DNA of 64,000 bases from the NCBI GenBank assembly GCA_963514005.1, contig OY740783.1:55304001-55368000 (forward strand), written 5' to 3'. The notes beneath the pieces are model-generated. The model was not told where the DNA came from. It saw only the letters and a list, made by a program, of their open reading frames with translations, and did not search any database. Position 1 is the stretch's first letter, and every line of letters starts with the position of its first letter. This document shows, one piece after another, positions 3,111 through 63,600 of this stretch. This stretch comes from Raja brachyura. Taxonomy: Eukaryota. Position numbers and translations under genes: made by a program.

Positions 3111-6100
3111 TCCTTAAACATATGTAGACACAAGGAACTGCAGCTCAAGGTGCAAGAATAACTCAGCAAGTCGGGCAGCATCACTGGAGGACATGGACAG
3201 GTGACATTTTAGGTCGGGACACTCCTTCAGACCTTGTAGCAGGAGATCAAACTATTGAAGAAATACTTCTAAAGAAGGATCTCGACCCGAAACATCACCT
3301 GTGCATGTTCTCCTCAAATACTGCCTAACCCGCTGAGATACTCCAGCACTTTGTCTTTTTTCTCTAAACGTACCATCTTTGCCCCTGAGTCTTATAGGGA
3401 CATGTCGACATGCTGACTCTGAACCTCTACCACGATACCAGAATACTCCGTGTTTCTCTTCCAAAATATATCCTCTCGGCATTCTTGGATGATAAGTTTG
3501 CATTTCCATTCAACACAATCTCATTTGACTGACAAATATCATATGAAGAGGGGTCATCATAACATCTGAAGAAGGATCATGATCATCGTCTGTCCATTCC
3601 CTCCACAGATGTCTTCTGACCTGTGAATTCCTCCTGCTCTTAGTGTTTTTCTCAAGATTCTAGCATCTACAATTTCATGTGTCTTCAAATATCATAAATT
3701 ATTGTACCTTTGGAGCATTTTCCTGGTTCATCCCATGATTTCATAGTTTTCTCATACATTCAATCTACATAAATATGTTTCTGTATCATTGCCGGAACTG
3801 GAAAATAATTTTCTAATATTTTTAATATGAACACTGTGTTATCAACCCCCATATTCTAAATTCTCATGCAGTATTAATTGCAATGCAACAACAATAACAT
3901 TTTGTTTAGAACTTTTACATTTTATTGTGTAATCTTATTGGGATAAACAAGTAAGAATGTTTGCATTCTTGATGTGCCAATTGTCATTATTATGAATTTA
4001 AGATCAAGAATTATTTGCTAAGATATGAATTGTGACCCAAGTAAATTGGGTCACCCTGATGAAACATCTTCAGACAGTAGTCAACACCTAATGCCCCTTT
4101 CTCATTTTCAACATAATTTTCTCACTTTTCATTGTATACAACTTTCAATTTTATTTTCTTGATTATCATCCATTATATGTCAGAATTCAAAGCACTACAT
4201 GCAAGTTTCAACATGCATGTTGTATCATAGTGACTTCACAGGGTGATAATATCCAACACCAGAGGGCATAGCTGTAAGGTGACAAATTCAACTGAACCCT
4301 TTCCCCTAACAAGTTTTGTTTCACACAGAGGGTGGTGGGGGCCTGAAATGAACGGCCAGAAGTCATGGTGGTGGAGGCAGATATGATATGATATGATAGT
4401 GACGTTCAAATGATTTTTGGATAGGCACATGGGAATAGAGGGATATGGTCCATGTACAAGAAATTATGAACTGTTTAACATTTTAATGGCATCGATCGGC
4501 ACAAATATTGTGGGCCAAACAGTCCATTCCTGTGTTGCACGTTCTATGTTCTATGGTTACATTGACTCGTTCCATAGACTCTATATACATGTCATATTCT
4601 GTTTGATGTTTTACTTAGTGCCTTTCTTTCAAGTTCCAGCAAAATACTCTGCCATGCTGAAGAGTATTTCATGATCAGCAATTGTTTAAGCTTCTTTACC
4701 TTTACAATTGCATCCATGGTCTCCTTAACTTGTTATAATTTAATGGCATCTACTTTTAGCCCAAAATAAATTATGTACAAATGCACCCTTACTTCATTTG
4801 AGCTTTATGTTGTGTACGTGCCACCATCTGAACCCTCTATTCTTCAAATATCTACTTATTTAGTTCTTCCAGTTATTAGTACATCATCTACTGCACATTC
4901 AATTGTTTATATATCTTAGTATCTTGTCCAGAACGTCAAAGATATTCAGTGATAATTTCACACCAGAAGATAGATAAGTGAAAGTGACGGACACTTCTTA
5001 TCTACTTTCAGATGAGCATTTGGCTCAACAGATCTAATTTAATGAAAACTCTATAAATAAATGTTGTGAAATTGGCAAGGGGTACTGCCTATCATCAACT
5101 ACCTAGATCATTGTAACATTTTAACCAGCACATGATCGAATTATTGTCCAATTTAGACGTAATTACATTTGTTGTCAAACAAGTATTCTAGTTTACCTTC
5201 ATTGAAACTTCATTTTATTTGAATTTATTTAATTTCCTCTACGTGGTTTTTCAAAAAATGAATAATAAATTGGGGCTCATAGTCAATAAGGATATTTTTC
5301 CAATATGTATATGTAGACTCTCATTTATGTAGACTTTGTCTTTTCACAGTGAAAAATTACTCCATGGCAAAAGTCAGAATGAAGGCATCTGGATTAACTT
5401 TAGCTTTAGAACCGCATGCTGAGAATTTATGTCTATTTTGGCAGTTGGATCATTTCGCTATTTTAAATCAATTTATATACAGTGAAAGGTTTCCATTGTA
5501 TCTACAGCAGCAATCTGTCTTAACCATGTGCTTGTGATTCTACTTTCGAGCTCTAGCCTTCATCATTGCTCAGATTGTTAATTGCTGTTGTATTTGTAAA
5601 TTGTAAACCCTCAAAAGGCTCCATGCTTTGTCCACAGACATAGCAATTATGCCTACAAGGTGAAATGTGGATTCATTTATTCGCATAAATTTACTCATCA
5701 ATTAAAACACAAACTTTTCACGCTGCAGATTGTCAAAGGTGACAATAAGTGCCAAATACTTAGACACAAGGAACAGCAGAAACTAGTTTAGTTACTGACT
5801 GACAACTCTGGCAATTTCACCTGACTTCTAATTCTTAGTCCTTATTTGGAACTCTTCACAATTTCTGATAGTTTAGCCCTTATGTGATCTCATAGCTTTT
5901 ATACTATTTCATTAAACAAAACATCATTGCCTTATCTTGGATTTAGATAATATGTAAGCTATTGTACATTTTGGAACTCTCTTGATAGAAAAATAATCAA
6001 GTTCAAGAATTTTGTGCAAACATATTCACATCATCATAATCAATGTCTGCAATGTTATTTACTGTAGAAAAAAAAATTTGCAAGCCTTCCATGTGTGGAC

Positions 6101-15246: not shown

Positions 15247-17601
15247 ATGGCGATGGAAGGGGCGCGGCCGAAGGTCCGGACCTACGCAGCGACGGCATCA
15301 GTGGCGGGTGCGAGGCCATCTGAGCTTGAGCCTCATGTTGACTTGGATGGGGACAGTTTTGGTATTTCTGTTCAAACTGGGCCTATGATGTCTAGGGGGG
15401 TAATTACGAAGGCCATGAATGAACTTCTTGGGAGGGGGGCTATTGTCTCTTCTGAGCTCGAAAGGGGAAAGGTGGAGATGATACTTAAGACCCGGGAGTG
15501 TGTGGCCCGAGCGTTGGAGGAGGGGATCTCAGTGGGGGGGGTCCACGTACAGGTGGATCCGTGGGTATCCAGGGTGAGACCGGTTCTCCTGCGGAGCTGC
15601 CCCACTTATTTTTCGGATGCAGTGCTTATTCCACACCTGTCCAAGTTCGGGGAGGTGCGGTCTAAGTGCTTTAGGCTCTTGCATCCTGGGGGGGACCCGG
15701 AGGAAAAAGGGGTCTTCAGTTTCAAGAGGAGGGTGTTCATGAAGGTGGGTGAGGGGGATGGTGCCGAGGGGAGTTTTGAGGTGGTGCATAAGGGGGTACC
15801 CAGAACCGTGCGTTGGAGTTGGGGAAAGGCACGGTGTCATGCGTGCGGCGAATTTGGACATCTCCGTAGGGAGTGTCTTTTTCGCGGGGGCACTGCTAGA
15901 GGTTCTAGTGCAGTGGCCCAGGAAAGCGCTGCTGGCCCATCTGGGGTGGCTGGTCAAACCTCAGCGGCGCGGGGTGGTACTGCTGACCCGGCTGAGGTTG
16001 CCAGTTCTGCCTTGGTGACCCGGGGCGGCAGTGCTAAGCCTTCTGGGTCCAGAGGTTCTGCTTTGGGGACCCTGGGCAGTGAGAGCCCAAGCCCCCCACG
16101 TCCCCTACGTCTTGCGCCTGTGGCGGTGGATGGAGGTGGGGCGCAGGAGGAGGGGAGTGTTGAGGGGGGGTTTTGGGAGAAGCAGGGGAAGCATAATAAG
16201 AAGAAGGAGAGGGATAGGGCTGCCCAAGCGAAGAAAGTGCAATCGGGTGAGTTTGGCTCCAGTGTGGTGCAGACTGCACCTGCTGGGGCCCAGGGGGGAG
16301 TTGTGGTGGCTCGGAAGGGGGGAAAGAAGTCTAAACGTGTGGGTGGCAAAGTGGTTGGGGGTAATGTGGAGGCGGATGACCCTTCCCTTATGGAGGTTAC
16401 CGCACCTCCGCATGCGAGTGGGACTAAAAGGAGGCATTTGCCTGGTGAAGAGGAGGAAGGGCGTGGGTCCAGAGCGAAGGGGATGTCTTTCTCCGAGCTT
16501 TCCACCACTGAGGTGGCTGAAAGTGGTCTTGACCCGGTGTCTTCTGGGTCGGTGGTTGGGCCTTCTCTTCATGGATCTACAGCGGGTGTCACCGGACTGG
16601 GTGCTGAAGTTGATTCCGGTGGAGTTGTGTCCACTGGGCGGGAGTCTGTCCCTTCATCTCAGGGGCCCTCTGAGGGAGTTATCTCGGCGGATGCTGTGGT
16701 TAGCTCCCTTGGGTGTGTACCCTCTGGGTCGGATGAGGTCCCCTCGTTTCAGAGGCCTACTGAGGGTGCTAGCACGGTAGATGACGTGGTTGGCTCCTCT
16801 GGTAGTGTGCCCTCTGTGACGGGGGATGGGCAGAGTCAGGCTGAGGGGGGAGTTTCGGGGGTGTTGTCGTTCAAGTCTGTGCTCCATATCAGTGCCAGTG
16901 GAGGTGCTGGGGGGCGGGATGCCTCACCGGATGAGTTGTCTGGGGTGAGGTTAATGGCAGGTGGTGATTCTCTGGGTGATGCCTGTGGAGAGGGCACTCT
17001 GGATGATGTGGAGGTCAGGGCTGTTATGGGACGTGATCCTCTTTCAGACTCCGAGGGTGCCAGTGTTCCACAGGCCCTGGGGATGCCTCTTGTTGTTGCT
17101 TCCCCAGGCCCAGAGGAGGAGGGTGATGGTAGCGGGCAGGAGCCCAGCCATTCAGAGGGCTGCGAGTCTCAGGTAGGGGTGCTGGGACCCACCCCCAGCA
17201 TTGATCCGGGTGGTCGTGTCATGGCTGTGGAGGAGGATAGCGATGCGGCCAGTGGGGGGGGCTCAGAGTGTGATGTGTCAGACAGTTCTGGTCTTTCTGA
17301 GGTTGTTGATTCAGGTGCGAGCGGGTTGGCTGAGAGCCCAGACTCCAAGGCCGTGTCTGAGGCGAAGCTTATTGTTGAGGTGCGAGAGTTCTTAAAAATA
17401 AGTCGTGCTCCCAAAACATTATGGTGGGCCATTACAAGGAGATGGGAGGATTGGCCAGATGTGCGGGAGAGTCTCGAGGCTATCCTTAGTAACAAGGATA
17501 GTGGTCTTTCTGACTCGGATTTGGGGCAGTTTTGGGGTTTGTTGAAGGTCCTCAGAAAAGGACCTCCTGTGACTACAGGGAGTGTGAGGGTCACAATCTA
17601 A
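15247..17601 (+). CDS. Tx1 ORF1 (gag-like nucleic-acid-binding protein, 784 aa from the first ATG)
   Basis: CCHC zinc knuckle CHACGEFGHLRREC preceded by an RRM-like region, then a long G/S/E-rich low-complexity tail; first in-frame ATG at 15247 in aggATGg context (the ORF track starts at GTG 15205). Confidence 0.85.
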   Translation: MAMEGARPKVRTYAATASVAGARPSELEPHVDLDGDSFGISVQTGPMMSRGVITKAMNELLGRGAIVSSELERGKVEMILKTRECVARALEEGISVGGVHVQVDPWVSRVRPVLLRSCPTYFSDAVLIPHLSKFGEVRSKCFRLLHPGGDPEEKGVFSFKRRVFMKVGEGDGAEGSFEVVHKGVPRTVRWSWGKARCHACGEFGHLRRECLFRGGTARGSSAVAQESAAGPSGVAGQTSAARGGTADPAEVASSALVTRGGSAKPSGSRGSALGTLGSESPSPPRPLRLAPVAVDGGGAQEEGSVEGGFWEKQGKHNKKKERDRAAQAKKVQSGEFGSSVVQTAPAGAQGGVVVARKGGKKSKRVGGKVVGGNVEADDPSLMEVTAPPHASGTKRRHLPGEEEEGRGSRAKGMSFSELSTTEVAESGLDPVSSGSVVGPSLHGSTAGVTGLGAEVDSGGVVSTGRESVPSSQGPSEGVISADAVVSSLGCVPSGSDEVPSFQRPTEGASTVDDVVGSSGSVPSVTGDGQSQAEGGVSGVLSFKSVLHISASGGAGGRDASPDELSGVRLMAGGDSLGDACGEGTLDDVEVRAVMGRDPLSDSEGASVPQALGMPLVVASPGPEEEGDGSGQEPSHSEGCESQVGVLGPTPSIDPGGRVMAVEEDSDAASGGGSECDVSDSSGLSEVVDSGASGLAESPDSKAVSEAKLIVEVREFLKISRAPKTLWWAITRRWEDWPDVRESLEAILSNKDSGLSDSDLGQFWGLLKVLRKGPPVTTGSVRVTI

Positions 17602-20600
17602 TGTGTCTACACATTCACAGTAGCTACATTAAATTTAAATGGGAGTAGAGCGAGTTTTCGAAGATTTCAGCTCTTATCAGCCCTAAGGGAGGGGAGATTT
17701 GCAGTTTGTTATCTGCAAGAGACACATACCGTTGCTAGTGATGAACCTACCTGGCAACTGGAGTGGGAAGGGAGGGTTTATATGAGCCATCTCAGCTCAA
17801 ATTCGAGTGGGGTGGCTTTTTTGTTGGCCCCAAATTTTCTGCCAAGCATTTTAAAAGTGCAGGAAGTGGTGCCAGGACGTTTGCTCCATCTGGCCGTGAG
17901 CCTGGATGGCATGCCGTTGCATTTCATTAACGTGTATGCCCCTAGCTCCGGCACGATGCAGGCCGGCCTGCTTCGGGAGGTGAATGCTCTGTTGGGCACT
18001 ATTGATAGGGGAGAGTGTGTCTTCCTTGGTGGGGACTTTAATTGCACACTTGAGGTGCGGGACCGTTCTGGTACTCAGTGTGCGCCTGCTGTAGCGAAGA
18101 AGCTGAGAGGCTTGATTGACTCCTTTGAGTTGGTTGATGTTTGGAGGGACCTTCACCCTGATTCCACTGCTTTTTCGCGGAGGTCTGAGGGCGGTGGTTC
18201 CCGCATTGATCGGTTTTATATTTCCCGAGCGTTTGTTTCCCGTGTCTCAGCGGCCTCAATGCGGCTGGTGCCGTGCTCGGACCATTGTCTGGTGCGTGTG
18301 GATTTCAATCCAGCGTGCGCTCGGGCTGGGTCCGCGTACTGGCACTTTAACAACAGGCTGCTGGAGGATCGGTGTTTCCGGGAGTCATTCACTCGGTTTT
18401 GGGTGAAGTGGAGAGAGAGGCAGAGGTGCTTCTCTTCCCTTAGGCAGTGGTGGGATGTGGGTAAAGCTCACATCCGTCTCTTTTGTAAGGAATATACATG
18501 GGGGTCGACTGGGAGGCGGGACTCAGCGGTCGCGAAGCTGGAGAGGGAGATACAGGACGCTGAGTCTCGCCTGGGTCAGTTTGGTGAAGACTCCAGCGAA
18601 TGGGGAGAGTTTCAGAGGAAGAAGGAGGTTTTGAGGAGTCTGCTGCTTGAGCGATCTCGAGGCGCTTATGTGAGGTCTCGGGTCCAGATGCTGCACGAGC
18701 TGGACCGAGCGTCGCCTTTCTTTTTCTCTTTGGAGAAGGGGCGGGGAGCTCGAAAACAGCTCGTGGAGTTGCTTGCAGATGACGGCTCCTCTGTCACTGA
18801 TCCAGAGAGGATTAATGCCTTGGTTAGGTCCTTTTATGGGACCCTGTTCTCTGCGGAAGGATTCAGTGTGGAGGCTCAGCAAGATCTGTGGGAGGGTCTA
18901 CCGGCCGTAGATAGGGGGGAGGCTGATCTTCTTGATGGCCCCTTATCTTTGGAGGAGTTGACTTGCGCCTTGCATCAGCTCAGGAGGGGTAAGTCCCCCG
19001 GGCTGGATGGGTTGACGGTGGAGTTTGTTAGAGCATTCTGGGACGTCCTAGGGGGTGACTATATGTTGGTTTTGGGGGAGAGCCTGGCGACTGGAGTGAT
19101 GCCTCTCTCGTGGCGTAGGACGGTTGTTGTCTTGCTGCCTAAGAAGGGCGAACTCCGTTTGTTGAAGAACTGGCGTCCAGTCTCTCTCCTTTGCACAGAA
19201 TATAAAATTTTTGCACGGGCAATGGCAAATCGCCTGGGCTCCGTGCTGCATCAAGTGATTCATCCTGATCAATCTTATACAGTCCCTGGCCGGTCCATCC
19301 AGGATAACATCCACCTGGTTAGGGACCTGATTCATTTAGTCCAGGGTACTGGTGAGTCAGCTGCTTTTCTGTCTCTTGATCAGGAGAAGGCTTTTGATAG
19401 GGTAGAGCATGAATACCTATTTGGGACGTTGCAAGCGTTTGGGTTTGGACCACACTTCGTGGCCCGGGTCCGGCTTTTGTACGCTGCGGCGGAGTGTCTT
19501 GTAAAGGTTAATGGCGCGGTGCTATCTCCTTTTCATTTTGGGAGGGGGGTCCGCCAGGGGTGCCCTATGTCGGGCCAGTTGTATTCGGTCTGTGTGGAGC
19601 CGTTCCTGTGTCTTCTTCGGAGGAGGTTGACAGGCCTGGCCCTACCTGGCCCGCGGGTTGAGGTGATTCTATCGGCGTATGCCGATGACGTACTTCTTAT
19701 GTTCACTGATCCTGGTGACCTGCGGAGGATGCGTGACTGCCAGGAGATATTCTCGGCTGCATCTTCTGCTAGGATTAACTGGAGTAAGTGCTCTGGACTT
19801 TTGGTGGGTCAGTGGCGGGTAGACTCCCTGCCGGAGGAGATGGCATTGTATGCGTGGAGTACCACGCACCTCCTCTATCTGGGGGTGTACCTGAGTCCCA
19901 CTGAGGATGTTTGGCCGGCAAACTGGCAAGAGTTGGAGACGAAGGTGGTTGCTCGGCTGGGGCGCTGGTCAGGCCTGCTTGGAGTTCTCTCCTTTCGGGG
20001 GAGGGTGCTGGTCATAAACCAGCTGGTGGCCTCTATGTTATGGTACCGGCTGGCTACTCTTGTCCCGCCCTCTATATTTGTAACTGCTATACAGAAGAAG
20101 CTGGTGGATTTCTTTTGGGGAAATAGGAAGCATTGGATTTCCGCGGCGGTCCTGAGTCTTCCGTTAGAGGAGGGCGGCCAGTCCTTGGTGTGCGTGCGCA
20201 CCCAGGTGGCGGCTCTCCGTCTCAGGACTCTGCGGAGATACATGTATGTAGAGAACCCTCCCAGATGGCACGCTCTGGCCACGTATTTTTTTCGTCAGGG
20301 TCGTTGCCTAAGGGGGGTCTCGCGGCTCCCGGTGGCGGGTGTCAGTCGACCCGCCCTAAGGGGCTTGCCTGTTTTCTATAGGGATGTGTTAAGAGTGAGG
20401 AATTTGGTGGTGTTCAGCCAGAGTGTTGTTCCACGAGGAGAGGGGGATGTTGTGGTTGCGGGTGTGGCTGGTCCTCATCCTGTCATGGTGGTTGTCGAGG
20501 AAAGGCGCGAGCCTAGAGTGGTTCAGATAGAGCTTACCCCTGCTCCGTCAGATCTGCTCATCGGGCCTAGGCTTCGGGATATTTCTCGGCCTCCGGCTCC

Positions 20601-21431: not shown

Positions 21432-22469
21432 AGAGAGAGAGAGTAGAGCAAGAAGATTGTGAAGTTAACAATGTGTAAGCAGAGAGAGCATGAAGAAATG
21501 AATAGTTAGAAAGTGCTGGAGTAACTCAGTGCATGAGTCAGCATCTCTGGAGAACATGGATAGGTGACATTTTGGGTCAAGACCCTTCTTCAGAGTAAAG
21601 TCAGGAAATGAATAGGTGAGAAAGAAAGAACAAAATTGCAGCTTGAGATCAACTGGAACACAGAAACAATTAATATGTCTAAACATCTGCATTGATCTTA
21701 AATTTGTACACCGGTAGTTCTACAAGAACAAAATGTTTAATAACAGTTCAATCTATGAATGGTAATGTTGATAGAGGATGCTGGGATGTCGAGATTAGAT
21801 GACACCTTATCTGCTTCTTGAATGTTATATGGACATTTAAGCATGTTAAATGGACATTTAAGCATTTTAAATGATAGGCCAGAGACCTTTATTCATATAA
21901 TGGTATTAGCCAAGAAAAGAGGATTCAAAATCCTTGTCCAAAACAGGTGCAGGTCACTTTTAGTGATCGAATACGAAGTATAATATCCCACTTTGCTTGT
22001 CCCCGAGCAAGATTGGATTGTTCAGTGAACAAATGGGATTGTGGTGGCCACTGTCATGAAAAAGAGACCTCAATGTGACCTGTCTTGTGACCTGTCTGGT
22101 GATCCTTAAATCCTCACACACAATGTATGGGGAAACCCATGTTTTCAGGTTTCTCAACTGAAAACCCCTTACTCCAGCTTATAGTTCCCTGCCCTGTCGA
22201 TCACAGGACAACATGGGCTTTGGACCAGTGGACTGTTCCTGTTACAGGATGTCTGATACCTTTTTATTCATTCAGAGGATGTAAACGTCATTTGAATCTC
22301 TTGAGTGACATATAGTTAAATTGTCTAGATCCTAGCAAAAAGGACAAGAATCAACAATCAGTTGAGATTGGGGTGATGGCTGGAAACCTGCACTTTGCAT
22401 GAACTGTTTTTTAAAGAAAGGTTCTTCTGGGGAAGTGAGCAGAATAGCATTTCCTTTCAATTGATTATC

Positions 22470-26781: not shown

Positions 26782-27227
26782 GAAACACAAGGAACTGCAG
26801 ATGCTGAAATCTTGAGTAAAACACAAGGTACTGCAATATCTCAGCAGGTCAGGCAGCATCTTATGAGGAAATGGAGAGACGGTATTTCGGGTCAGGACCT
26901 ATCTTCGGACTAACTTCAATCAGCCATCTATTCATGTCCTCCAGAAATGCTGCCAGACATGCTGAGTTACTCCAGCACTTCATTTTTTATGAAAGTGGTA
27001 ATAATGTGTTGAAAGAAGAAGGAGAAACAAGGAACTGCCGATGCTAGTTCACAGAAAAAAAAGGCGCAAAGTGCTGGAGTAACTCCGCGGGTCAGGCATC
27101 TCTGGAGAACATAGATAAGTGATGTTTTGGGTCTAAGAAGGGTCCCGGCCTGAAACTTCACCTCTTCACCTTCTCCAGAGATGCTACCTGATCCATGGAG
27201 TTAATCCAACACTTTTGTGTCTTTTGG
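26782..27227. repeat. Two adjacent palindromic (inverted-arm) elements of the hammerhead-core family, each with its own TSD
   Basis: Arms GCTGGAGTAACTC.. / ..GAGTTACTCCAGC; TSD tgaaagtgg (26773-26781, 26990-26998) and tgaaagaagaa (27010-27020, 27228-27238). Confidence 0.65.
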
Positions 27228-27949
27228 TGAAAGAAGAATATGGAGCTAGAAGTCTAATTTCTCTGTATGCTGAGAAAGGGAGGGTTTTCTTGCAACTTGC
27301 AGTAAATCTGGAAATGCAATGCGTCTATCAATGATGGTGTAATGCACCCACTGCATTAGGATGTCATTATCGAGTTTCTTGATCAAAGGATATGATTAGA
27401 AATGATGATTCAATTTCAACTTCAAAATGTAAATGGATACTCCAAAATAGCAAGTTGTAAAGGAGACGGAGTAAGTACTGGTGGCATTGTGCTGAGAGCA
27501 GCAGATGCAGCTGCCATTTTCTTTATTTGAAGTGTTGAGAGCTATCAGGCCAGGTAGGGAACTGCTCGTGTTTACTGATAGGAAGAAGCAGCCTGCTGGC
27601 GGAACAAAGAAGCGAAGGCCACAGAGAGTCACGTAGCTCTAGAGCTGGAAGTAGGGAATATGCTAATGTATTCAGAGCTGACAGAGATTTAGTGACCTAA
27701 TAAGAGCAAGATTGGTGATACAGTCTGCTATACATTGATGTCTCCACCACCCAATCTCCTTAACCTACCTTCACATTCCACACACCAACTTACCTCTACT
27801 AATGCTGCAAATGCACTGACCCTTCTTCATATTCCCATCAGTCAACCCACCACTTACGCCCACCCCCTTCTTTATTCATGCCATGTCTCATTCCTGTCAA
27901 TCTCAGCAAATGCTATCCATATACCATTTCTCTGATTCAATGGTTCTAG

Positions 27950-29918: not shown

Positions 29919-30139
29919 CTGGCGTTTTGCAAAGACAACTGCATCTGCAGTTCCATCCTATTGAAGAAGAACCCTGGCCCGAAACAACTCCTAATCCATT
30001 TCCTCCACAGATGCTGCCTAGCCCACTGAGTTCCTCCAGCACTCTGTTTTTTTATTTAACTATAATTGAAGATAGAAACAAGAAGCTGGAGTAACTCAGC
30101 GGGACAGGCAGCATCCCTGGATAGAAGGAATGGGTGACG

Positions 30140-34597: not shown

Positions 34598-35102
34598 ATG
34601 GTACAGAGAAGATTCACCAGACTGATTCCTGGGATGTCAGGACTTTCATATGAGGAAAGATTGGATAGACTCGGTTTGTACTCGATGGAATTTAGAAGAT
34701 TGAGGGGGGATCTTATAGAAACCTACAAAATTCTTAAGGGGTTGGACAAGCTAGATGCTGGAAGATTGTTCCCGATGTTGGGGGAGTCCAGAACAAGGGG
34801 TCACAGTCTAAGGATAAGGGGGAATTCCTTTAGGACCGAAATGAGGAAAACATTCTTTACACAGAGAGTGGTGAGTCTCTGGAATTCTCTGCCACAGAAG
34901 GTAGTTGAGGCCAGTTCATTGGCTATATTTAAGAGGGCGTTAGATGTGGCACTTGTGGCTAAAGGGATCAGGGGGTATGGAGAGAAGGCAGGTACGGGAT
35001 ACTGAGTTGGATGATCAGCCATGATCACATTGAATGGCGGTGCAGGCTCGAAGGGCCGAATGGCCTACTCCTGCACCTATTTTCTATGTTTCTATGTTTC
35101 TA
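34598..35102 (+). mobile_element. CR1 LINE 3' fragment
   Basis: VQRRFTRLIPGMSGLSYEERLDRLGLYSMEFRRLRGDLIETYKILKG...FFTQRVVSLWNSLP; 3' UTR ending in (TTTCTATG)n. Confidence 0.9.
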
Positions 35103-35311
35103 ATATACTTGCCTAGCTATCCTTAGGTTCAGGAGCAGGTTCTTCCCTTCCACCTACACACCAACCTCCAAATAGGCTCCGAACTATATAGACTTGGGAC
35201 GGGACATATGACAATAAAACATTCTTGACTCTTGACCTCCCAGTCTGGCTCACCTGACTGCACCTTCCAACTAACAATCTCATTTTAGCTCCCAACCTCA
35301 TCTAATCACAG

Positions 35312-35404
35312 GGTTACACAAAAAGCTGGAGAAACTCAGCGGGTGCAGCAGCATCTAAGGAGCGAAGGAGATAGGCGACGTTTCGGGTCGAGACCCTTCT
35401 TCAG
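35312..35404 (-). mobile_element. 93-bp Penelope-pLTR-like element with hammerhead ribozyme core and 12-bp TSD
   Basis: Minus strand CTGAAGA-A-GGGTC-TC-GACCC-GAAAC-GTC (35404-35377); TSD atctaatcacag at 35300-35311 and 35405-35416. Confidence 0.7.
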
Positions 35405-35780
35405 ATCTAATCACAGATCTATCATCTCCACCCTGTCCACAGGTCCATCAACTGCTCTTGTATTCATCTACAATTGACGCCTCTCCATCCCACTAACTTC
35501 CAGCAGTTAATCCTTACCCCAGCCCCCTTTACAATCTATCATTTGACTCCCTCAAACATTCCATCTCAACCTTTGCATCCCAGCATATATCCACTTTTCA
35601 CCCTTTCAGCTCCTGATCCAACAATCCCACCGTCACCCATTCCCAAAAGCCTCTGATTCACCTGATTTTCTTTGTATACACCACAATGGCAAAGCAGGTG
35701 GACAAATTGCTTGCTCACCCTATCCTGCCTGTTTAGTACCACAGGAAGTTTGGAGTTTCATGCACCACTGAACTTCCCAT

Positions 35781-35872
35781 CTGAAGAAGGATCTCGACCC
35801 GAAACATCACCCATTCTTTATCTCCAGAGATGCTGCCTATCCCGCTGAGTTATTCCAGCTTTTTGTGTCTAT
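35781..35872 (+). mobile_element. About 90-bp element of the same family with degenerate hammerhead core and 10-bp TSD
   Basis: CTGAAGAAGGATCTCGACCCGAAACATC at 35781-35808; TSD cttcccatct at 35773-35782 and 35873-35882. Confidence 0.68.
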
Positions 35873-36763
35873 CTTCCCATCTTCAGACCTTTCACCAAAG
35901 TGTTTGTTGATCTGCTGGACATCAGCTGTTTAACTCTCCTGAACATGGGCAATTGAATTGCTTGCCAATTGCCTACAAAATGTGTGAAAAGGGGGAAGTG
36001 AAAAGTGGAAGAAAATTAATAGTCCAACTCACCACCGATCTGAAGCATTCTGAAGCAATTGGAATATTAAGCCAATTCAGTTTAAAAAAAAACATATTCA
36101 GAAATAAATGAACAGAAACTTTGACCATTGTGCTCAAGATTAATGGGAAATGTAATAAACGTTCATAGTATGTTGCTCTATTTTCCATGGGAACAAACTT
36201 ATACTTGTGGCCCATCCTCACTAAATGAGCAGCACACAAACCATCTCTACACGTAAATTACGCATTCAAAACGCCAAAGAGGAGAGACTCAAACCAGACA
36301 ACAGAACAGAAATACTCCCTATCATGAGAAAGGAGCATTTCAGACTAATAATCATTCATTTGTAATAGTTTTAACTCCCATCAGAGAGCATAGGAATTTG
36401 ACAAGCTTTGGAATGGTTTATACATTACCACTTATGAACCTAATTTGAAACTTGTTCATATGAGAGGAAATCGTCACTCATTGCTTCATCTCTCTTCCAG
36501 GGTTTGAAGAGTAGACTTATTTTTTGATAAATACTTTATCAGTTAATAATTCACAAAGCAACCATTCTAATTGAAAATACTGTATATCCTTTACTTAAGC
36601 CACTGAGTTTTCATTTTAGAAAACTGATCAAAAGTAAGCTGTGTATTGGAAAGATGGCATGACTATGGCGTCACCTATAATTTAGGTTGGTTGTGTTCAA
36701 AATATTTACTGTATTATCGTCTCATTGGTGAGAGTAATGAACTGGGTGATCTCTGTATTTTAG

Positions 36764-40240: not shown

Positions 40241-41061
40241 TCTGTATTGTTGACATAAAACAAATAACAAGATTATTTCAGTCCCTTGGATGGTTTAATC
40301 ATTGGATGTCACTTATAACTGTGAAGTATCCTGTTACTTTAATTTATTAACAAATTCAATATCGAACTGCCACTAGATATTAGGATTTTGAACTACATTT
40401 AACATTTGTCTTCCCATAATGTTTTATTGTGGGAAATTGGTTCACACATATCAAGCAAGATCTAGTGGAGATGATAGGAACACTCAAACAAGGAAGAAGA
40501 AAACACAAAGTGCTGGAATAACTCGGCAGGTCAGGCAGCGTATTTGGAGGACATGGATAGACAAAGTTTCAGGTCAGGATCCCTATCCATGTTCTCTAGA
40601 GATGTTCCCAGATTCGCTGCATTACTCTCCAGCACATTGTGTTCTATGCAAGATTGCAACATCTGTTGTTTCTTGTGTCACCAAAGAAGGAGAGAAAATC
40701 AATGAATTATCAATCCACTGAATAGTTTAAACACACATCCATTCAGGTTGAAGTTGAACCTGTGCAAATTATCAGTGGAATACTATTTGCAACCATTAAC
40801 TTCACAACTTCTGCTGAGATAAAAATGTCAAATACAGATTAAATCCATCTGATTTGGACAAGAATGCCTAGCTTAGTTAAGCTTGATGGCAGCAAGGAAA
40901 ACAAAATTCAGCTTGAACCTATCCAATGCTAATTTTTGTTTTTCTCGTTTATCTCCATTTGGTGGCAATTAGCATTATAAATCTATTTTTTCTTCTGGGA
41001 ACCTCACGTTTGAAAGTGTCTGAAGATAGGCACAAAAAGCTGACATAACTCAGTGGGTCAG

Positions 41062-43927: not shown

Positions 43928-45074
43928 TTGGTAGAAACTGTGGTAAGAAGGAAAGGTGAAGAAAATTTGCAGTACACTGGAGACCAGCCAGACAAGGTTA
44001 AGACAATGACCCATGGAAGTTACTTAAATCTCTGCATCCAGGTTTTCAGGCTTGGCCAAAGGATGGAAACCTGGATACAGAGCTGTGTGTCTGATGACCT
44101 CACTTGGTGGCCAAGGTCTGTACTCTGTCATGTGAAGCACTCTCCTCCAACAAATTCTTATGAATCTCCCACCAACAATCTCCATCATATTAATCAAGAG
44201 TCACACACTCTTTCAAACATTTAGCACAGCTGCAAGGTCAAAGCCAGATGTCACAGATTGCACACAGGGCCAGCTGTTCATCCATGAAAGCCTCTCACTC
44301 TAACATAAGTATAGCAATAATTGACGCACTTCCCTTCTCCCAGGTCAAGGTGCCATGCGAGTAAGTATGCAGGAACTAAAGTAGGAGGGCAAGTGTACAT
44401 GTCAAAACCCCTGCAGCAGCCAGTAGTGAGCTTCATTGGGATGTCCGTTGTTGGAGTGGTGACAACGGCAGGACAAAATAATGGATGATAATGGCTTCCT
44501 CATTTCTTACGCTTCTTCTCACAACCCACCTCCCCTTAATTTGAGTTACAATTTATCAATCATTGGAACCAACCTTCCCCTCACCCCTAACACTAACCTA
44601 CATTAACTTGCAGCACAACCTCACCATAACTTCAATTGGCTTCCCATCTCCTTCCAGTTATTCAAGTATGCTGCCCAGCGATGCAATGGATGAGCATGGA
44701 GAAGGGGCACACTGGTGAAAATCAATTGACGTTTGATTTCATACTTGAAGTCAAAAAAATATATCCTGGCTTGGTGTTCATGGTAGAGGAAATGACATAG
44801 GCATAAGGTGAGGCGGTGGACACAAGAGGTTTGCAGTCAGGTTAAGAAGCAAGGATAGTGCAATTGTTGACCTACAGAAGTGACTTGGAAGAGGCCTTCA
44901 GGAAAAAGCTGTGCAAAATGAAATGTTTGTTGCATCACGATGTTCGTTGGACAGGCTGTGTTTACTGTCAAATAGATTGGAGGATTCAGGCACCAACTTG
45001 GCACAGGCCCACACGTAGCTTAGAACTCATCCCTCCCAGTGTGAACAGTGCCCAATTCCTTTCTCATCTTGCTC

Positions 45075-45345
45075 AAAAACAAAGTGCTGGAGAAACTCAG
45101 CAGGTTAGGCAGCATCCGTGGAAGGAAACGGTTGGCTGGTGTTTCAGGTCGGGACTCTTCTTCAGACTGATAATGTTTCAGGTTGGGATCCTCCCTTAGA
45201 TTGATGATGTTTCAGATCAGGACCTTTCTTCACACTGATGAAGAAGGGTCCCGACCTGAAACGTCCTTCCACAGATGTTGCATGACCTGCTGAGTTCTTC
45301 CAGCAGTTATATTTAGCTCAAGATTCCAGCATCAGCTGCTTCTTG
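45075..45345. repeat. Palindromic element with three tandem 34-bp antisense hammerhead-core units and one sense core
   Basis: GTTTCAG recurs at 45141, 45175 and 45209; sense TGAAGAAGGGTCCCGACCTGAAACGTC near 45239-45265. Confidence 0.65.
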
Positions 45346-46497: not shown

Positions 46498-46819
46498 AAA
46501 GATAGACACAAATTGCTGAAGTAACTCAGCGGGTCATGCAGCATCTCGCTGAGTTACTCCAGCACGTTATGTTTTATGAAAGTGGCAATGATGTGGTGAA
46601 AGAAGGAGTAACAAGGAACTGCAAATGCCGGTTTACAAAAAGAAAACACACACAAAGTGCTGGAGTAACACAGCGAGTCATGCAGCATCTCTGACAAACG
46701 TGGATAGGTAACATTTCGGGTTGAAACGTCACCTATCCATTTTCTCCAGACATGCTGCCTGACCAGTAGAGTTACTCCAGGACTTTGTATCTATCACCAT
46801 CGGCAGTTCCTTTTAATCA
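46498..46819. repeat. Composite palindromic element with 9-bp TSD
   Basis: TSD caactcata at 46489-46497 and 46820-46828; two inverted-arm units joined by a spacer that matches 26986-27035. Confidence 0.65.
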
Positions 46820-50480: not shown

Positions 50481-53400
50481 TGTATTCCAATTTGTCTCTC
50501 CCCCCCAGTATTCAGTTCTGATATTCGGTCAACTAAGGGTGAATATTCACTTATTATATAGCATAAAATATTAATATCAACATGTGAAATAGGTCCAAAA
50601 ACTTTGCATGTATCTTGTGTTTTTACATTTGATAATGATTGTCTTTCAGTGTTAATATAGCAAAAAAAAATGCAGTTCAACTGATAAACGTTACTTTTCC
50701 TATTTGATCTTTATTCTCTTCTGGAATAAAATGAAGCTTGTAATTTGCACTGTTATTTTTCAATGTTTAGATGCATTAAATCTCTGGCTGGCTAAATGAT
50801 AGTTGCTTTCACATCAGGTTGGAAGTATTCCCTGAGTATCTGCACTTTTCCAAGTCACTTCGTTGACTCAAATCTTCTGCTTAAAAAATAGCAGTTTTTT
50901 TTCCTAATCGCTAGCTTTTACCTACATAATGATGTGGAGGTTCAGGCAAACATTGAAGTCTTGAATTGACTGCTAATCCTGGGTGAAAAACATTCTGCAA
51001 TTGGACTCTATGTGGACTTATTGCATGGGCTAGAAAATACTGTCCACAGAACCTGTGCCGGGCACAGGTCCATCAGGTTTATTGATTTAATTGGGAAGAA
51101 TGTGTTGTAATCTTAAGTACAAGATCATTTCATTTTATTAATTGGCTTGATTTTAATAGATTTATTTATTTCCTGGTGTATTTCATTTTTCATTATTTTA
51201 CTTTTTATATTATTTTTTATGATGAATAGTTTCCAGCTCATTGGAATATTTGTGAATGTCCGAGGCTTTCACAGATATTCAATGGCCTTGACAGCTATGA
51301 CATCCAATGAGCCTAGCATTGGGTTGCAGCCTGCTAGAATTGTGATCTAAATGTTTCAATTGATAAGAACCAGCTCCCTGAAGGAAGATTACACCCATCG
51401 GCCTGCATTATATAAAAGTGTCTTCGTGTGCAGGTAAACTGCAAGATCAGTCTCTTCTAGATTTCATTCCCCCCACCTCTGCAATCATTCTGAAGAAGGG
51501 TCCCAACCCAAAACATCCCCTGTCCATATTTGCTAGTGATGCTGCCTGACCCACTGAGTTGCTCCAGTATTTTGCATCTTTCCTAAACTGCAAGTAAAAT
51601 CAGGCCACCGTCTTTATATTTCTACAGAATATCTTGTTTTACCTGTGTGTGCAATGATCACTTTACAACTGGCTCTTATATGTTCTTTGCAATCTTCCAA
51701 AATAATTGTACTGCTCATAGATTTGTACCACTCAGAAATAGGCCCTTTGGCTCACCACACCCATGCCGACCTATTTGCCCATCAACACTAATCCTATTTG
51801 TCTACTTTAGTATCTTCTCCTCTGTGCCTCTGCTACAGAGTGAGAGCTTCCTCTGCTAATCAGTGTCCAGGCTGACCATTTACTGTTCATTATTTTCAGA
51901 GAAAATCTTTCCAGTTTCACAATTAGAATTGTGAGTGCTGTTTTAGAAACCTTCATAAGTTTATACGTAATAGAAACAGAATTAGGCCATCAAGTCTACC
52001 CCGCCATTCAATCATGGCTGATCTATCTTTCCTTCTCAATGCCATTCTCCTCCTTTCTCTGCAGAACCCCGGACAACTGCACTAATTACCTTGCTAGGTG
52101 TTCCAGACATCCCACATCTATCAATGAAACACTAGAAACCAGAGAACAGATAAGAAAGTGGAGATGAATTTCAGTGAGAATTCTCCAACTTACATAAGAA
52201 GAGGAGCGATTTAAATTCTGGAAAAACAGCATAACACCTTTGCAGATATTCACTTCATCACATCCCTTACTGTTATAACCTTCCATCATGTCCTATTGTA
52301 ATTAATCATAAATGGAGTTGGAGGGGGAAATTAGTGAGTTAACTCCAATATGACTTTGGCAACCATTGGGGAACGACTGATGAACTGGCTCTCCTGTGTT
52401 TTTACTGCAGAACATTGGTGAGCATGGTTCAAACAGGCATGCTAGTAATGGTGTGAAATTGAAGAGAATGGGAGGACATGTGTGAGTAGACAGAACGTAC
52501 ATGCGCAAGAGAAGTCAAGAGAGACTTCTCAAGAGACAAGAATCACACGTGTTTAATTATCATATGTATCAACAACCAAACAATGACATTCTCATTTGCA
52601 GCAGGATAACAGGCCTGTAAACACAATATAGATAATATATCATAAACAAAAATTCCATAAATAATCCAACTAAGTGCAGTGACCAAAAGCAGGACCGTCA
52701 AATTATCTTCCACCTGAAACGTGAATTCTGCTTCTCTTCCACTGATGCTGCATGACCTGCTGAGTGTTTCCAGCATTTTCCTTTTTTTTTTCGCTTATTT
52801 TCAGCATCTGCAGTGCTTTTAAATTTTAAGAAGCATTTTAAACCATTTCCTTTCGTCTTCCATTCAACAAACTGATTTTATTTCACTGATACTACCTAAT
52901 TTGATCTCCTAACATTTCAAGCAAGGTCAGTTCCCTCTCTATTTTCATTTATCATTTTTTAATAATTGCTTAGTTTGGAAAACAATGAGGTGCAGCAAGA
53001 TTTTATCTGGTGCTCATGTAATAAATCAGTTCTGTCACTACGCACAGTAACCAGAACAATTCTTCTCATGGGAGAACTATAATGTAATGTGGCTAAATTG
53101 TAAGAGCGACTAAATGCACTTTGCTGTGCAGCTTAAGGTAGCAACTTCATGCTTCAGAGGCTAAAACATCCACCTAAATAGAAAAAATATTAGTATATTT
53201 AAATATCTTGCACAACAAGTACTATTTAAAATTAGAAACAGAAAATGCAATCAACATTGCACTAACATCACTAAAAATTTAATTTGTTTAATTAGCCCCA
53301 TTTCTTTAAATACTGATTTTTGGGTTGTCACCAATTTGCTTTATTGTAAGGAATTCTGTGCATAAATGCCATGTTGATTGTAACATGCAAGAGAAATCCT

Positions 53401-62449: not shown

Positions 62450-63600
62450 AGTTGTAGAGCTGTACAGCACGGAAACAGGCCCTTTAGCTCACCTTGTCCA
62501 TGCATGTTGAGCTAGTCCCATTTGGCCCTTAGCCCTCTAAACCCTTCCAACCCATATAGGTGTCCAAATGTCTTTTATTGTAAATGTCATAATTGTATCT
62601 GTTTCAATACCTACTCTGGCAGCTCATTACAGATAGAGGACTACCCTCCAAAATGTTGCCCCCAAGGTCCCTCTTAAATCTTTCCCTTCTCACCTTAAAT
62701 CAATGCTATCTACTTTTAAAGTCCTCTACCCTGGGGAAAGAATGTGAGCCTTCACATTATCCATGCCCCTCATGATATTGTACATCTCAATAATGTCACC
62801 CCCTCAGCCTCCTATGCTCATGCCTATCCAACCTTTACCTATAACTCAAACCCGGAAGCCAAGGTAACATACTGATAAATCTCTTATGCATCTTTTCCAA
62901 CTTAATTACAGTACATCTAACATATTGTGTGCGACCAGTATTCCAAGACTTGTACAGCTGCATCGTTTGTATTAAGTTCCCTTTCCAATGAAGGTTGTAG
63001 AAACAAGGAACAGCATATGCTGGCTTACAACAAATGACAAAGTACTGGAGTAACTCAGCAGGGTACAGAAAAATACACTAGGCAGTGGAGTAGCTCAGCA
63101 GCGTACAAAAAAAGATAAAATGCTGGAGTAACTGAGCCTCAGCAGACCTTGAGTCCTGACCCAAAACGTCACTATCCATGTTCTCGATTGATGCTGCCTG
63201 AGCTATAGAGTTACTCCAGCACTTTTTGTCAAATGCCTTCTTCACCACGCTGTCCATCTGCCTTGCCACTTTGAGGAAACCATGCATTTTTGTTCCCAGA
63301 TCTCTCTATTTTGCAATACTCTCCAGGGCTCTACCATTTACAGTATGTCCTACACTGGTTCAACACACCGAAGTGCAACACTTCACACTTTGATCGGAGT
63401 TAAATTCCATTTGCCATTCTTTGCCCAACTGACCTAAACCTTGTTGTAAACATTGATATCCTTCCTCACTGTCCAAATTTGGTGGTGTCTGCAAATTTAC
63501 TAGCAATCTTAACCACGTTGACATCCAAATCATTAATGTACACAACAGCAGTGGACCTAACGCCAACCCCTATGGCATCCACTTGCCACAGGCCTCCACA
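62450..63600 (-). mobile_element. Degraded CR1 LINE interrupted by a palindromic short repeat (about 62998-63230)
   Basis: Minus-strand peptide remnants LKVARQMDSVVKKAF and WQMEFNSDQ; CR1-type tail at the left end. Confidence 0.65.

Follow-up and report, generated by a model that had tools for sequence, protein, structure and literature searches.

Penelope-like elements (PLEs) of the Neptune/Nematis type are endonuclease-bearing (EN+) elements that, as far as PMC8557442 describes them, have a single frame for an RT with a C-terminal GIY-YIG domain, a CX2-5CxxC linker before GIY-YIG that defines the clade, and a hammerhead in the pLTR, and that form partial tandems and inverted 5' copies with a 30-40-bp tail at one end and heavy 5' truncation. 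The element described here shares all of these traits, its linker being of the form CX4CxxC. The one-ended tail of inverted PLE copies is likewise known from PMC3846280, self-priming or nuclease resolution is proposed for such copies in the available parts of both accounts (PMC3846280; PMC8557442), and the origin of the inverted repeats, tails and tandems is still described there and in PMC11167929 as open. In vitro, the enzyme of the Anolis carolinensis Poseidon element uses two internal RT starts ~35 nt apart in an AC-rich stretch and extends both strands, ribozyme cleavage is unneeded and no RNA ends at the cleavage site (PMC11167929, in the portion available); these features, too, are shared. 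The same holds for the hammerheads of metazoan PLEs, which according to the accessible text of PMC4209133 have a bulge after A9, a G10.1-C11.1 pair, no loop 3 and a palindromic ACGU, and occur mostly as single dispersed motifs, some of them on opposite strands 100-700 bp apart. Non-LTR retrozymes, in turn, are small non-coding repeats with type I hammerheads related to PLE pLTRs, as are the units considered below; they are described, in what is available of PMC7229834 and bioRxiv 10.64898/2026.07.22.740005, as tandem 150-450-bp monomers that the ribozyme processes into circles, whereas the units here are dispersed 90-130-bp monomers or inverted pairs.

The window, by which we mean the whole 64-kb stretch of DNA analysed, contains two short insertions on opposite strands that the first-pass annotation had described as mobile units with 12-bp and 10-bp TSDs, beginning exactly at the CTGAAGA of a hammerhead core. 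Both units and both TSD pairs were found (Table 1). Positions are numbered from 0 at the C of CTGAAGA (C3 of the hammerhead; 35404 on the minus strand in unit 1 and 35781 on the plus strand in unit 2), which puts the 5' end left by cleavage after GUC at +28. The units do start near the core, but "exactly" holds only to within 1-3 nt, since the TSD overlaps the start by microhomology; through this overlap the start of unit 2 is ambiguous between -1 and +2. Sequence comparison found unit 1 to be letter-identical to the pLTR of a young autonomous PLE (tandem copy L119), and clustering assigned it to subfamily cluster 1 (mean divergence 1.7%) and unit 2 to cluster 3 (mean divergence 6.6%). Given that the two units are only 82% identical in pairwise comparison, belong to different subfamilies and have a TSD each, they are independent insertions rather than an inverted pair. 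By its repeats the host resembles a cartilaginous fish. A LINE-type repeat, which we take to be of a HER1/CR1-like family, has its 3' end at 34800-35102, just before unit 1, and terminates in (TTTCTATG)n; elsewhere in the window, 16001-20000 is G+C-rich (55-57%) and strongly skewed, unlike the rest.

Related cores had also been listed at nine other places in the window, and all nine are among the 27 copies returned by a profile search; Table 1 includes a number of older ones. The same search gave 168 copies in 400 kb, sampled as 40 ten-kb stretches at round coordinates, and no match in shuffled sequence. Extrapolation to 2.7 Gb yields ~1.1 million copies, in keeping with the great abundance claimed at the outset, and at that density neighbours 375 bp apart are unremarkable. 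Exact genome matches to a 37-mer of unit 1 number 42,690, those to the ORF start of the parent element 691. A TSD score of at least 8 (median 13 bp) was obtained for 32 of the 62 copies that have no inverted arm next to them, compared to 9 of 300 mismatched flank pairs; the 30 copies that have no clear TSD include some that are arms of long inverted insertions.

Table 1. Units, target site features and older copies of the family in the 64-kb window.
Feature	Position	Strand	Remarks
Unit 1	35312..35404	-	93 bp; pLTR positions 0..+92, subfamily A, ends at +93 site
TSD copy at 3' end of unit 1	35300..35311	-	12 bp; first two letters also element +93/+94
TSD copy at 5' end of unit 1	35405..35416	-	12 bp
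Hammerhead core of unit 1	35377..35404	-	CUGAAGA, bulged A, 4-bp stem II, GAAAC-GUC; stem I 1 bp
Unit 2	35783..35872	+	90 bp; pLTR piece, older subfamily B, two core-region changes
TSD copy on 5' side of unit 2	35773..35782	+	10 bp; last three letters overlap element -1..+1
TSD copy at 3' end of unit 2	35873..35882	+	10 bp
Old head-to-head pair	3134..3372	.	Arms 3231->3134 and 3268->3372; profile search
Old single unit starting at core	21495..21594	-	Profile search
Two old head-to-head pairs	26786..27248	.	26908/26923 and 27134/27135; profile search
Two old units, opposite strands	29962..30139	.	Profile search
Old head-to-head pair, short and long (tailed) arm	40497..40681	.	Profile ends 95 and 131
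Old head-to-head pair	45060..45345	.	Profile search
Old head-to-head pair, long and short arm	46606..46799	.	Profile ends 131 and 98
Old single unit starting at core	51489..51607	+	Profile search
Old head-to-head pair, long and short arm	63000..63236	.	Profile ends 129 and 96

The parent of the units was found through GIY-YIG frames in the genome and is a young element with open frames of up to 1226 aa. Full copies of ~4 kb encode a 1203-aa RT and C-terminal GIY-YIG frame, with the unit ~235 bp past the stop codon; they form tandem arrays with a period of 3965-3971, and TSDs of 11-15 bp could be read by eye in four of them. Pfam matched RVT_1 and GIY-YIG in the 1203-aa frame, both below the cut-off, and again in a 509-aa relative, where GIY-YIG passed it. 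The CX4CxxC linker suggests that the parent is of the Neptune/Nematis type, going by the definition of that clade in the available part of PMC8557442. The layout of the pLTR, with partial-tandem and inverted copies and an optional tail, is represented by the tandem arrays, by 51 inverted pairs and by two 3' ends 35 nt apart. Altogether 76 units sit 50-330 bp behind the end of a GIY-YIG ORF, the subfamily of unit 2 is found in this position as well (L011, L015, L020), and unit variants at +41 and +43 are also present in ORF-linked copies. Comparison with the pLTR from the same genome thus bore out the Penelope origin that had been proposed for the units, with unit 1 identical to the end of an intact autonomous element, but not the proposal of a separate non-autonomous family, since the variants are common to units and ORF-linked copies. 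Judged by their sequence, the units are end pieces, or by-products, of an autonomous Penelope-like retrotransposon that is intact in the same genome.

The pLTR of one parent copy (L122:2200-2420) carries further signals. Splice-like motifs flank the unit, among them a pyrimidine tract with a CAG ending at -2; a second acceptor-like tract ends at ~+48, ahead of an ATG with an open frame of 42 codons, and the main ATG is overlapped by a donor-like AAG/GTATG. No junction of the kind expected from back-splicing between a donor-like site at ~+160 and the CAG at -1 was seen in 103 copies or in a set of 30 loci. Assembled RNA contigs, all of them from other organisms that hold at most 39% of the sampled words, revealed no transcription start, 3' end or spliced joint. 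Positions +46..+111 of the same unit are predicted to form a helix of AGAUGCUG with CAGCAUCU and an inner hairpin, just upstream of both of the start sites discussed below. The 5' arm of the predicted helix is kept in 8 of 9 clusters, and the helix is a candidate binding site for the enzyme.

We next consider the hammerhead itself. Unit 1 and the parent have the minimal type I layout that had been claimed, with CUGAnGA, a bulge after A9, stem II, GAAA, a palindromic ACGU (15.2-16.2) and UH. The minus-strand core had been called intact, which it is, although its stem II, given as 5 bp, which would leave a 2-nt loop, is better read as 4 bp (GGGU/ACCC) with a tetraloop and one bulged A before it. 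Unit 2 departs from the layout by two breaking changes, G+10 to A in a stem II pair and G+25 to A in the ACGU palindrome. Core and stem II are identical in the majority lines of 8 of 9 clusters (2-17% divergence), while the sequence behind +28 varies; among the nine clusters stem II shows no compensatory change, and only its loop and the first pair of stem I (U-G/U-A) vary. The caveat that stem I is weak was well founded: the parent has 2 bp there, as do 148 of 150 subfamily A copies keeping CAGT, both window copies have 1 bp, and the predicted pair probability is 0. Stem I is thus shorter than the 4-5 bp expected of minimal PLE hammerheads, and both it and the 4-bp stem II are shorter than in the motifs of schistosomes, for which the available text of PMC4209133 gives 4-5 and 7-8 bp. 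The Rfam check that had been suggested was negative: none of the 20 matches that it gave for the window at E up to 10 is to a hammerhead family, and the parent pLTR gave none either. Folding with ViennaRNA likewise did not recover the hammerhead, whether in a monomer or in a dimer (stem II probability no higher than 0.30), and in a short RNA it paired the 5' end with positions +116..+128; the core would be two bases short in an RNA starting at +2. Conservation of the hammerhead may stem from cleavage at some other stage, in a dimer or with the help of protein, or from a role in the promoter.

The ends of the units were tabulated for 103 subfamily A copies with the exact 37-mer, drawn from the window, the 40 stretches and mostly the first 3.9 Mb of one contig (contig 1), and including a few duplicated loci. 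Of the 5' ends, 54 lie at -5..0 and 61 at -7..+7; 9 are further in, and 33 lie beyond -7, out to -2164. None falls at +26..+30 around the cleavage site, and no 3' end coincides with that site. The 3' ends are instead bimodal, with 67 at +89..+104, 35 at +120..+131 and one at +229. The 5' ends are thus non-random, as had been claimed, but the further claim that ribozyme processing sets them finds no support in these counts, nor in the jump junctions described below, of which 1 of 57 (+29) lies near the site. Genome-wide, 9,321 exact matches reach -10, compared to 35,267 that have the core (26%), and the pyrimidine-rich upstream flank is kept in about a third or fewer of the copies, older clusters included. 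These breakpoints define a 5' boundary that is real and distinct from the cleavage site, and the hammerhead does not set the ends of the units. Unlike the Neptune/Nematis copies, as far as PMC8557442 describes them, roughly three quarters of the core-bearing copies here terminate at the core start, within ten bases. The pair of 3' ends corresponds to the internal RT start sites between which the tail of the Anolis element lies (PMC11167929, in the part available), although that element belongs to another clade and in the parent here the ORF starts behind the tail. The longer truncated copies show some clustering of their own, at -443..-504 (7 of 33) and -977..-1009 (6 of 33); the interval from -154 to -443 is empty.

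Additional evidence on the nature of the 5' boundary comes from junctions at which the cDNA, having run to a point x, resumes at a point y that lies downstream of the start sites. For the first of the 691 places with the ORF start, 70 loci were read, most of them not full-length; after two internal-deletion rows and repeats within one locus had been dropped, 57 independent junctions were counted. Point y lies mostly at +184..+265 (56 of 64 rows), with its lower limit set by the search pattern (+139..+173). An extra G precedes x in 20 of 28 junctions at -7..+2, compared to 3 of 26 further upstream (Fisher p = 8.5e-6), and is found in 9 of 9 junctions at -4, 4 of 4 at -3 and 4 of 5 at +2, a short A/T run often preceding it; the three remaining junctions lie inside the unit, at +29, +33 and +43. 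Likewise, the extra G was present at 8 of 20 TSD-defined target junctions near the boundary and 0 of 12 far from it. In the first 100 of 4,464 genome matches, counted by hand, G stands before A(-3) 54 times (p = 3e-8 against 27%). No such excess was seen before C(-4) in a hand count of the first 100 of 4,611 matches (T 66, G 18, A 16), a test confounded by inflation of T, to which palindromic junctions and the native T of some subfamilies contribute. The CCAGT/TCAGT at -5..-1 resembles an initiator motif. An extra 5' G in L1 and SVA insertions has been attributed to copying of the cap (PMC3287187, in the portion available), and a TATA-less promoter within the pLTR is described for Drosophila Penelope in what is accessible of PMC2377424. 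Since the extra G is a known mark of a copied cap, the boundary at the core start is likely a transcription start, and the junctions suggest that the units start at the ribozyme because the capped RNA of the element probably begins there, not through cutting by the ribozyme. The G could alternatively stem from untemplated addition at an uncapped end. Moreover, G on the 5' side of the jump junctions together with A/U runs on their 3' side indicates a sense template.

Two other accounts of the 5' boundary have to be weighed against a capped start. That it is a stall point on a long RNA, caused by structure, a bound protein or perhaps the splice-acceptor-like CAG that follows the pyrimidine tract, with the G untemplated, we consider unlikely. 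Such a stall would fit the other loose clusters of 5' ends near -450..-500 and -1000, the resemblance of the sequence upstream of -1 to a 3' splice site in all subfamilies, and the intron of Drosophila Penelope, which ends at helix I according to the accessible text of PMC4209133. Against it, the extra G is rare at other stops, as the upstream jump junctions and distant target junctions attest, starts at +2 carry the G as well, no upstream exon is common to the junctions, and folding predicts no stable hairpin immediately upstream of -4. That the unit is a retrozyme-like RNA excised by the hammerhead and then inserted would account for a core and stem II kept in nearly every cluster ahead of variable sequence, and yet it seems extremely improbable: RNA ends set by cleavage, as in retrozymes, would leave 5' ends or joints near +28, where none of the 103 ends and a single junction were located, stem I has 2 bp in almost all subfamily A copies that keep CAGT, and no tandem array of 90-bp monomers occurs in the loci read.

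We return, then, to units that begin at a capped start, and to the head-to-head pairs in which many of them are found. The exact palindromic junction occurs 908 times in the genome, and in 50 of 51 head-to-head pairs, 24 of them picked by that junction, one arm ends near +93 and the other near +128. The one-ended tail of the Neptune/Nematis type, as reported in the available part of PMC8557442, is hereby quantified as a rule of one site per arm. The short arm reaches further at the 5' side in 16 pairs, by up to ~1,150 bp (L170), the long arm in 2, and in 32 the arms agree within 5 nt. TSDs enclose the entire pair in most of the 30 palindromic-junction loci. A variant common to both arms was observed in 11 of 24 pairs, compared to 2.05 expected (0 of 20,000 shuffles), and outside CpG sites in 5, compared to 0.54 expected; 36 variants in the 24 pairs are private to one arm. 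Based on these junctions, the inverted pairs are likely the product of twin priming on one RNA, although two RNAs made at a single source locus would explain the shared variants equally well. Among 32 single insertions with a TSD, one convincing remnant of an aborted second arm was found (L042), too few to build on.

In L1 twin priming, both target strands prime cDNA, and the resulting segments do not overlap. Here, in contrast, the arms are two copies of one stretch, each begun at its own fixed site. The Poseidon enzyme differs in another respect, in that no difference in start site between strands was noted in vitro, and cap-defined short inserts are not among the products reported in the portion of PMC11167929 available. 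In the literature covered, no publication on cap-defined PLE stubs, on PLE twin priming or on one site per arm was found.

Taken together, we regard as probable the explanation that the units are stubs of the autonomous PLE, made when RT initiates at +93 or +128 within a short capped RNA. From either site RT would copy some 95-130 bases and reach the 5' end of the RNA at the core. Transcription would start at -4, -3 or +2, with the extra G as the copied cap, and many transcripts would end near +200..+265 with short A/U tails. Retroviral minus-strand strong-stop DNA is a short cDNA that begins at an internal site and extends as far as the RNA 5' end; it is tRNA-primed and not integrated. Because the transcripts would be short, the RT start sites would lie close to the cap, and the product would be analogous to such DNA. 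The enzyme would make a staggered cut in both strands, one of which would be primed at +93 and the other at +128, both on the same RNA. The enzyme at +93 would lead, and the cDNA ends would pair through the CAG-T-CTG palindrome or some other microhomology; loss of one arm would leave a single unit, and a jump from the 5' end of the RNA to a 3' end would produce rare mini-tandems of 190-330 bp. The template would be uncleaved RNA, with the ribozyme as a passenger. There is precedent in vitro for two internal RT starts that bound the tail, for cutting and extension of both strands, and for a reaction in which the ribozyme is not needed and downstream RNA is required (PMC11167929, in the part available). 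As they are without the sequence downstream of the RT start sites, solo units are likely immobile. We give a slight preference to the fuller scheme, in which asymmetric twin priming (by a dimer, with cuts ~13 bp apart and one site per cDNA) is combined with some million strong-stop-like stubs from short promoter-proximal transcripts and with hammerhead mini-tandems made by jumps from cap to 3' end, which would lead to retrozyme-like repeats independently of the ribozyme.

The pairs and the sheer number of units have each invited a different explanation. Fold-back, or self-priming, of one cDNA or antisense RNA, followed by nuclease trimming that creates the tail, is proposed in the available parts of PMC3846280 and PMC8557442 and would agree with the exact palindromic junctions and with the variants common to both arms. 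Nevertheless, we hold it to be quite unlikely, since a fold-back of the long arm cannot out-reach that arm at the 5' side, a copy of the short arm cannot gain a tail, and the jump junctions, with their G and A/U runs, point to a sense template; for the long arm in particular, fold-back is ruled out by the arm lengths, given the 16 pairs in which the short arm extends further. It is more doubtful still that the units are a self-propagating SINE-like family, whose solo copies are transcribed from an internal promoter and recopied by the Penelope enzyme. Such a family would be in line with the excess of units over copies of the ORF start and with the recurrence of two mini-tandem junctions, but no unit-specific lineage was seen, the +41 and +43 variants being present in ORF-linked copies as well, the recurring mini-tandems are 311 and 328 bp long with 4 and 6 copies, and the related enzyme depends on RNA that lies downstream of its start sites (PMC11167929, in the portion available).

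The mini-tandems, 191, 311 and 328 bp in length, repeat the same joint 2-4 times (L267, L276, L283, L285, L307, L326), and a further hammerhead mini-tandem lies at G000 C22:20179074-20180085. They likely result from repeated template jumps on one short RNA. They resemble non-LTR retrozymes, but their joints lie at the likely jumps between cap and 3' end rather than at the cleavage site; it is possible that such mini-tandems are an origin of retrozyme-like repeats. We considered whether they form a large re-mobilised family and rejected this, as there are 4 and 6 copies only. Two of the joints recur, at 2 and 3 loci, indicating that re-use is rare.

The main result of the first search for GIY-YIG frames was a second, distant PLE, with 32% identity over the RT-EN frame. 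It lies at L087:2177-7900 (also L082, L084-L086 and L088-L090), at contig ends of G000, and forms head-to-tail arrays among TTAGGG repeats at many chromosome ends, with the 5' end tipward, the 3' end running into CCCTAA repeats and copies ~99% identical. Its frames comprise 602 aa with a weak GDSL-hydrolase match and 760 aa with RT and GIY-YIG, and it carries a complete monomeric hammerhead with an 8-bp stem I and a 5-bp stem III. Attachment to telomeres is tied to endonuclease-less PLEs in published work, as far as the available sources go, and we found no published case of a telomere-attached endonuclease-bearing PLE in vertebrates in the literature covered. This element is possibly more novel than the 90-bp units.

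These findings suggest that the element behind the units belongs to a known kind, and that its value lies in the mechanism that can be read from junction counts. More than 40,000 near-identical recent insertions and intact parent frames are available in one genome, and they yield three sharp, testable junction rules, namely a cap-marked 5' boundary at the core, one start per arm, and tandem joints away from the cleavage site. They also caution that large counts of solo hammerheads in vertebrate genomes can reflect by-products of insertion, which are not necessarily working ribozymes or retrozymes.
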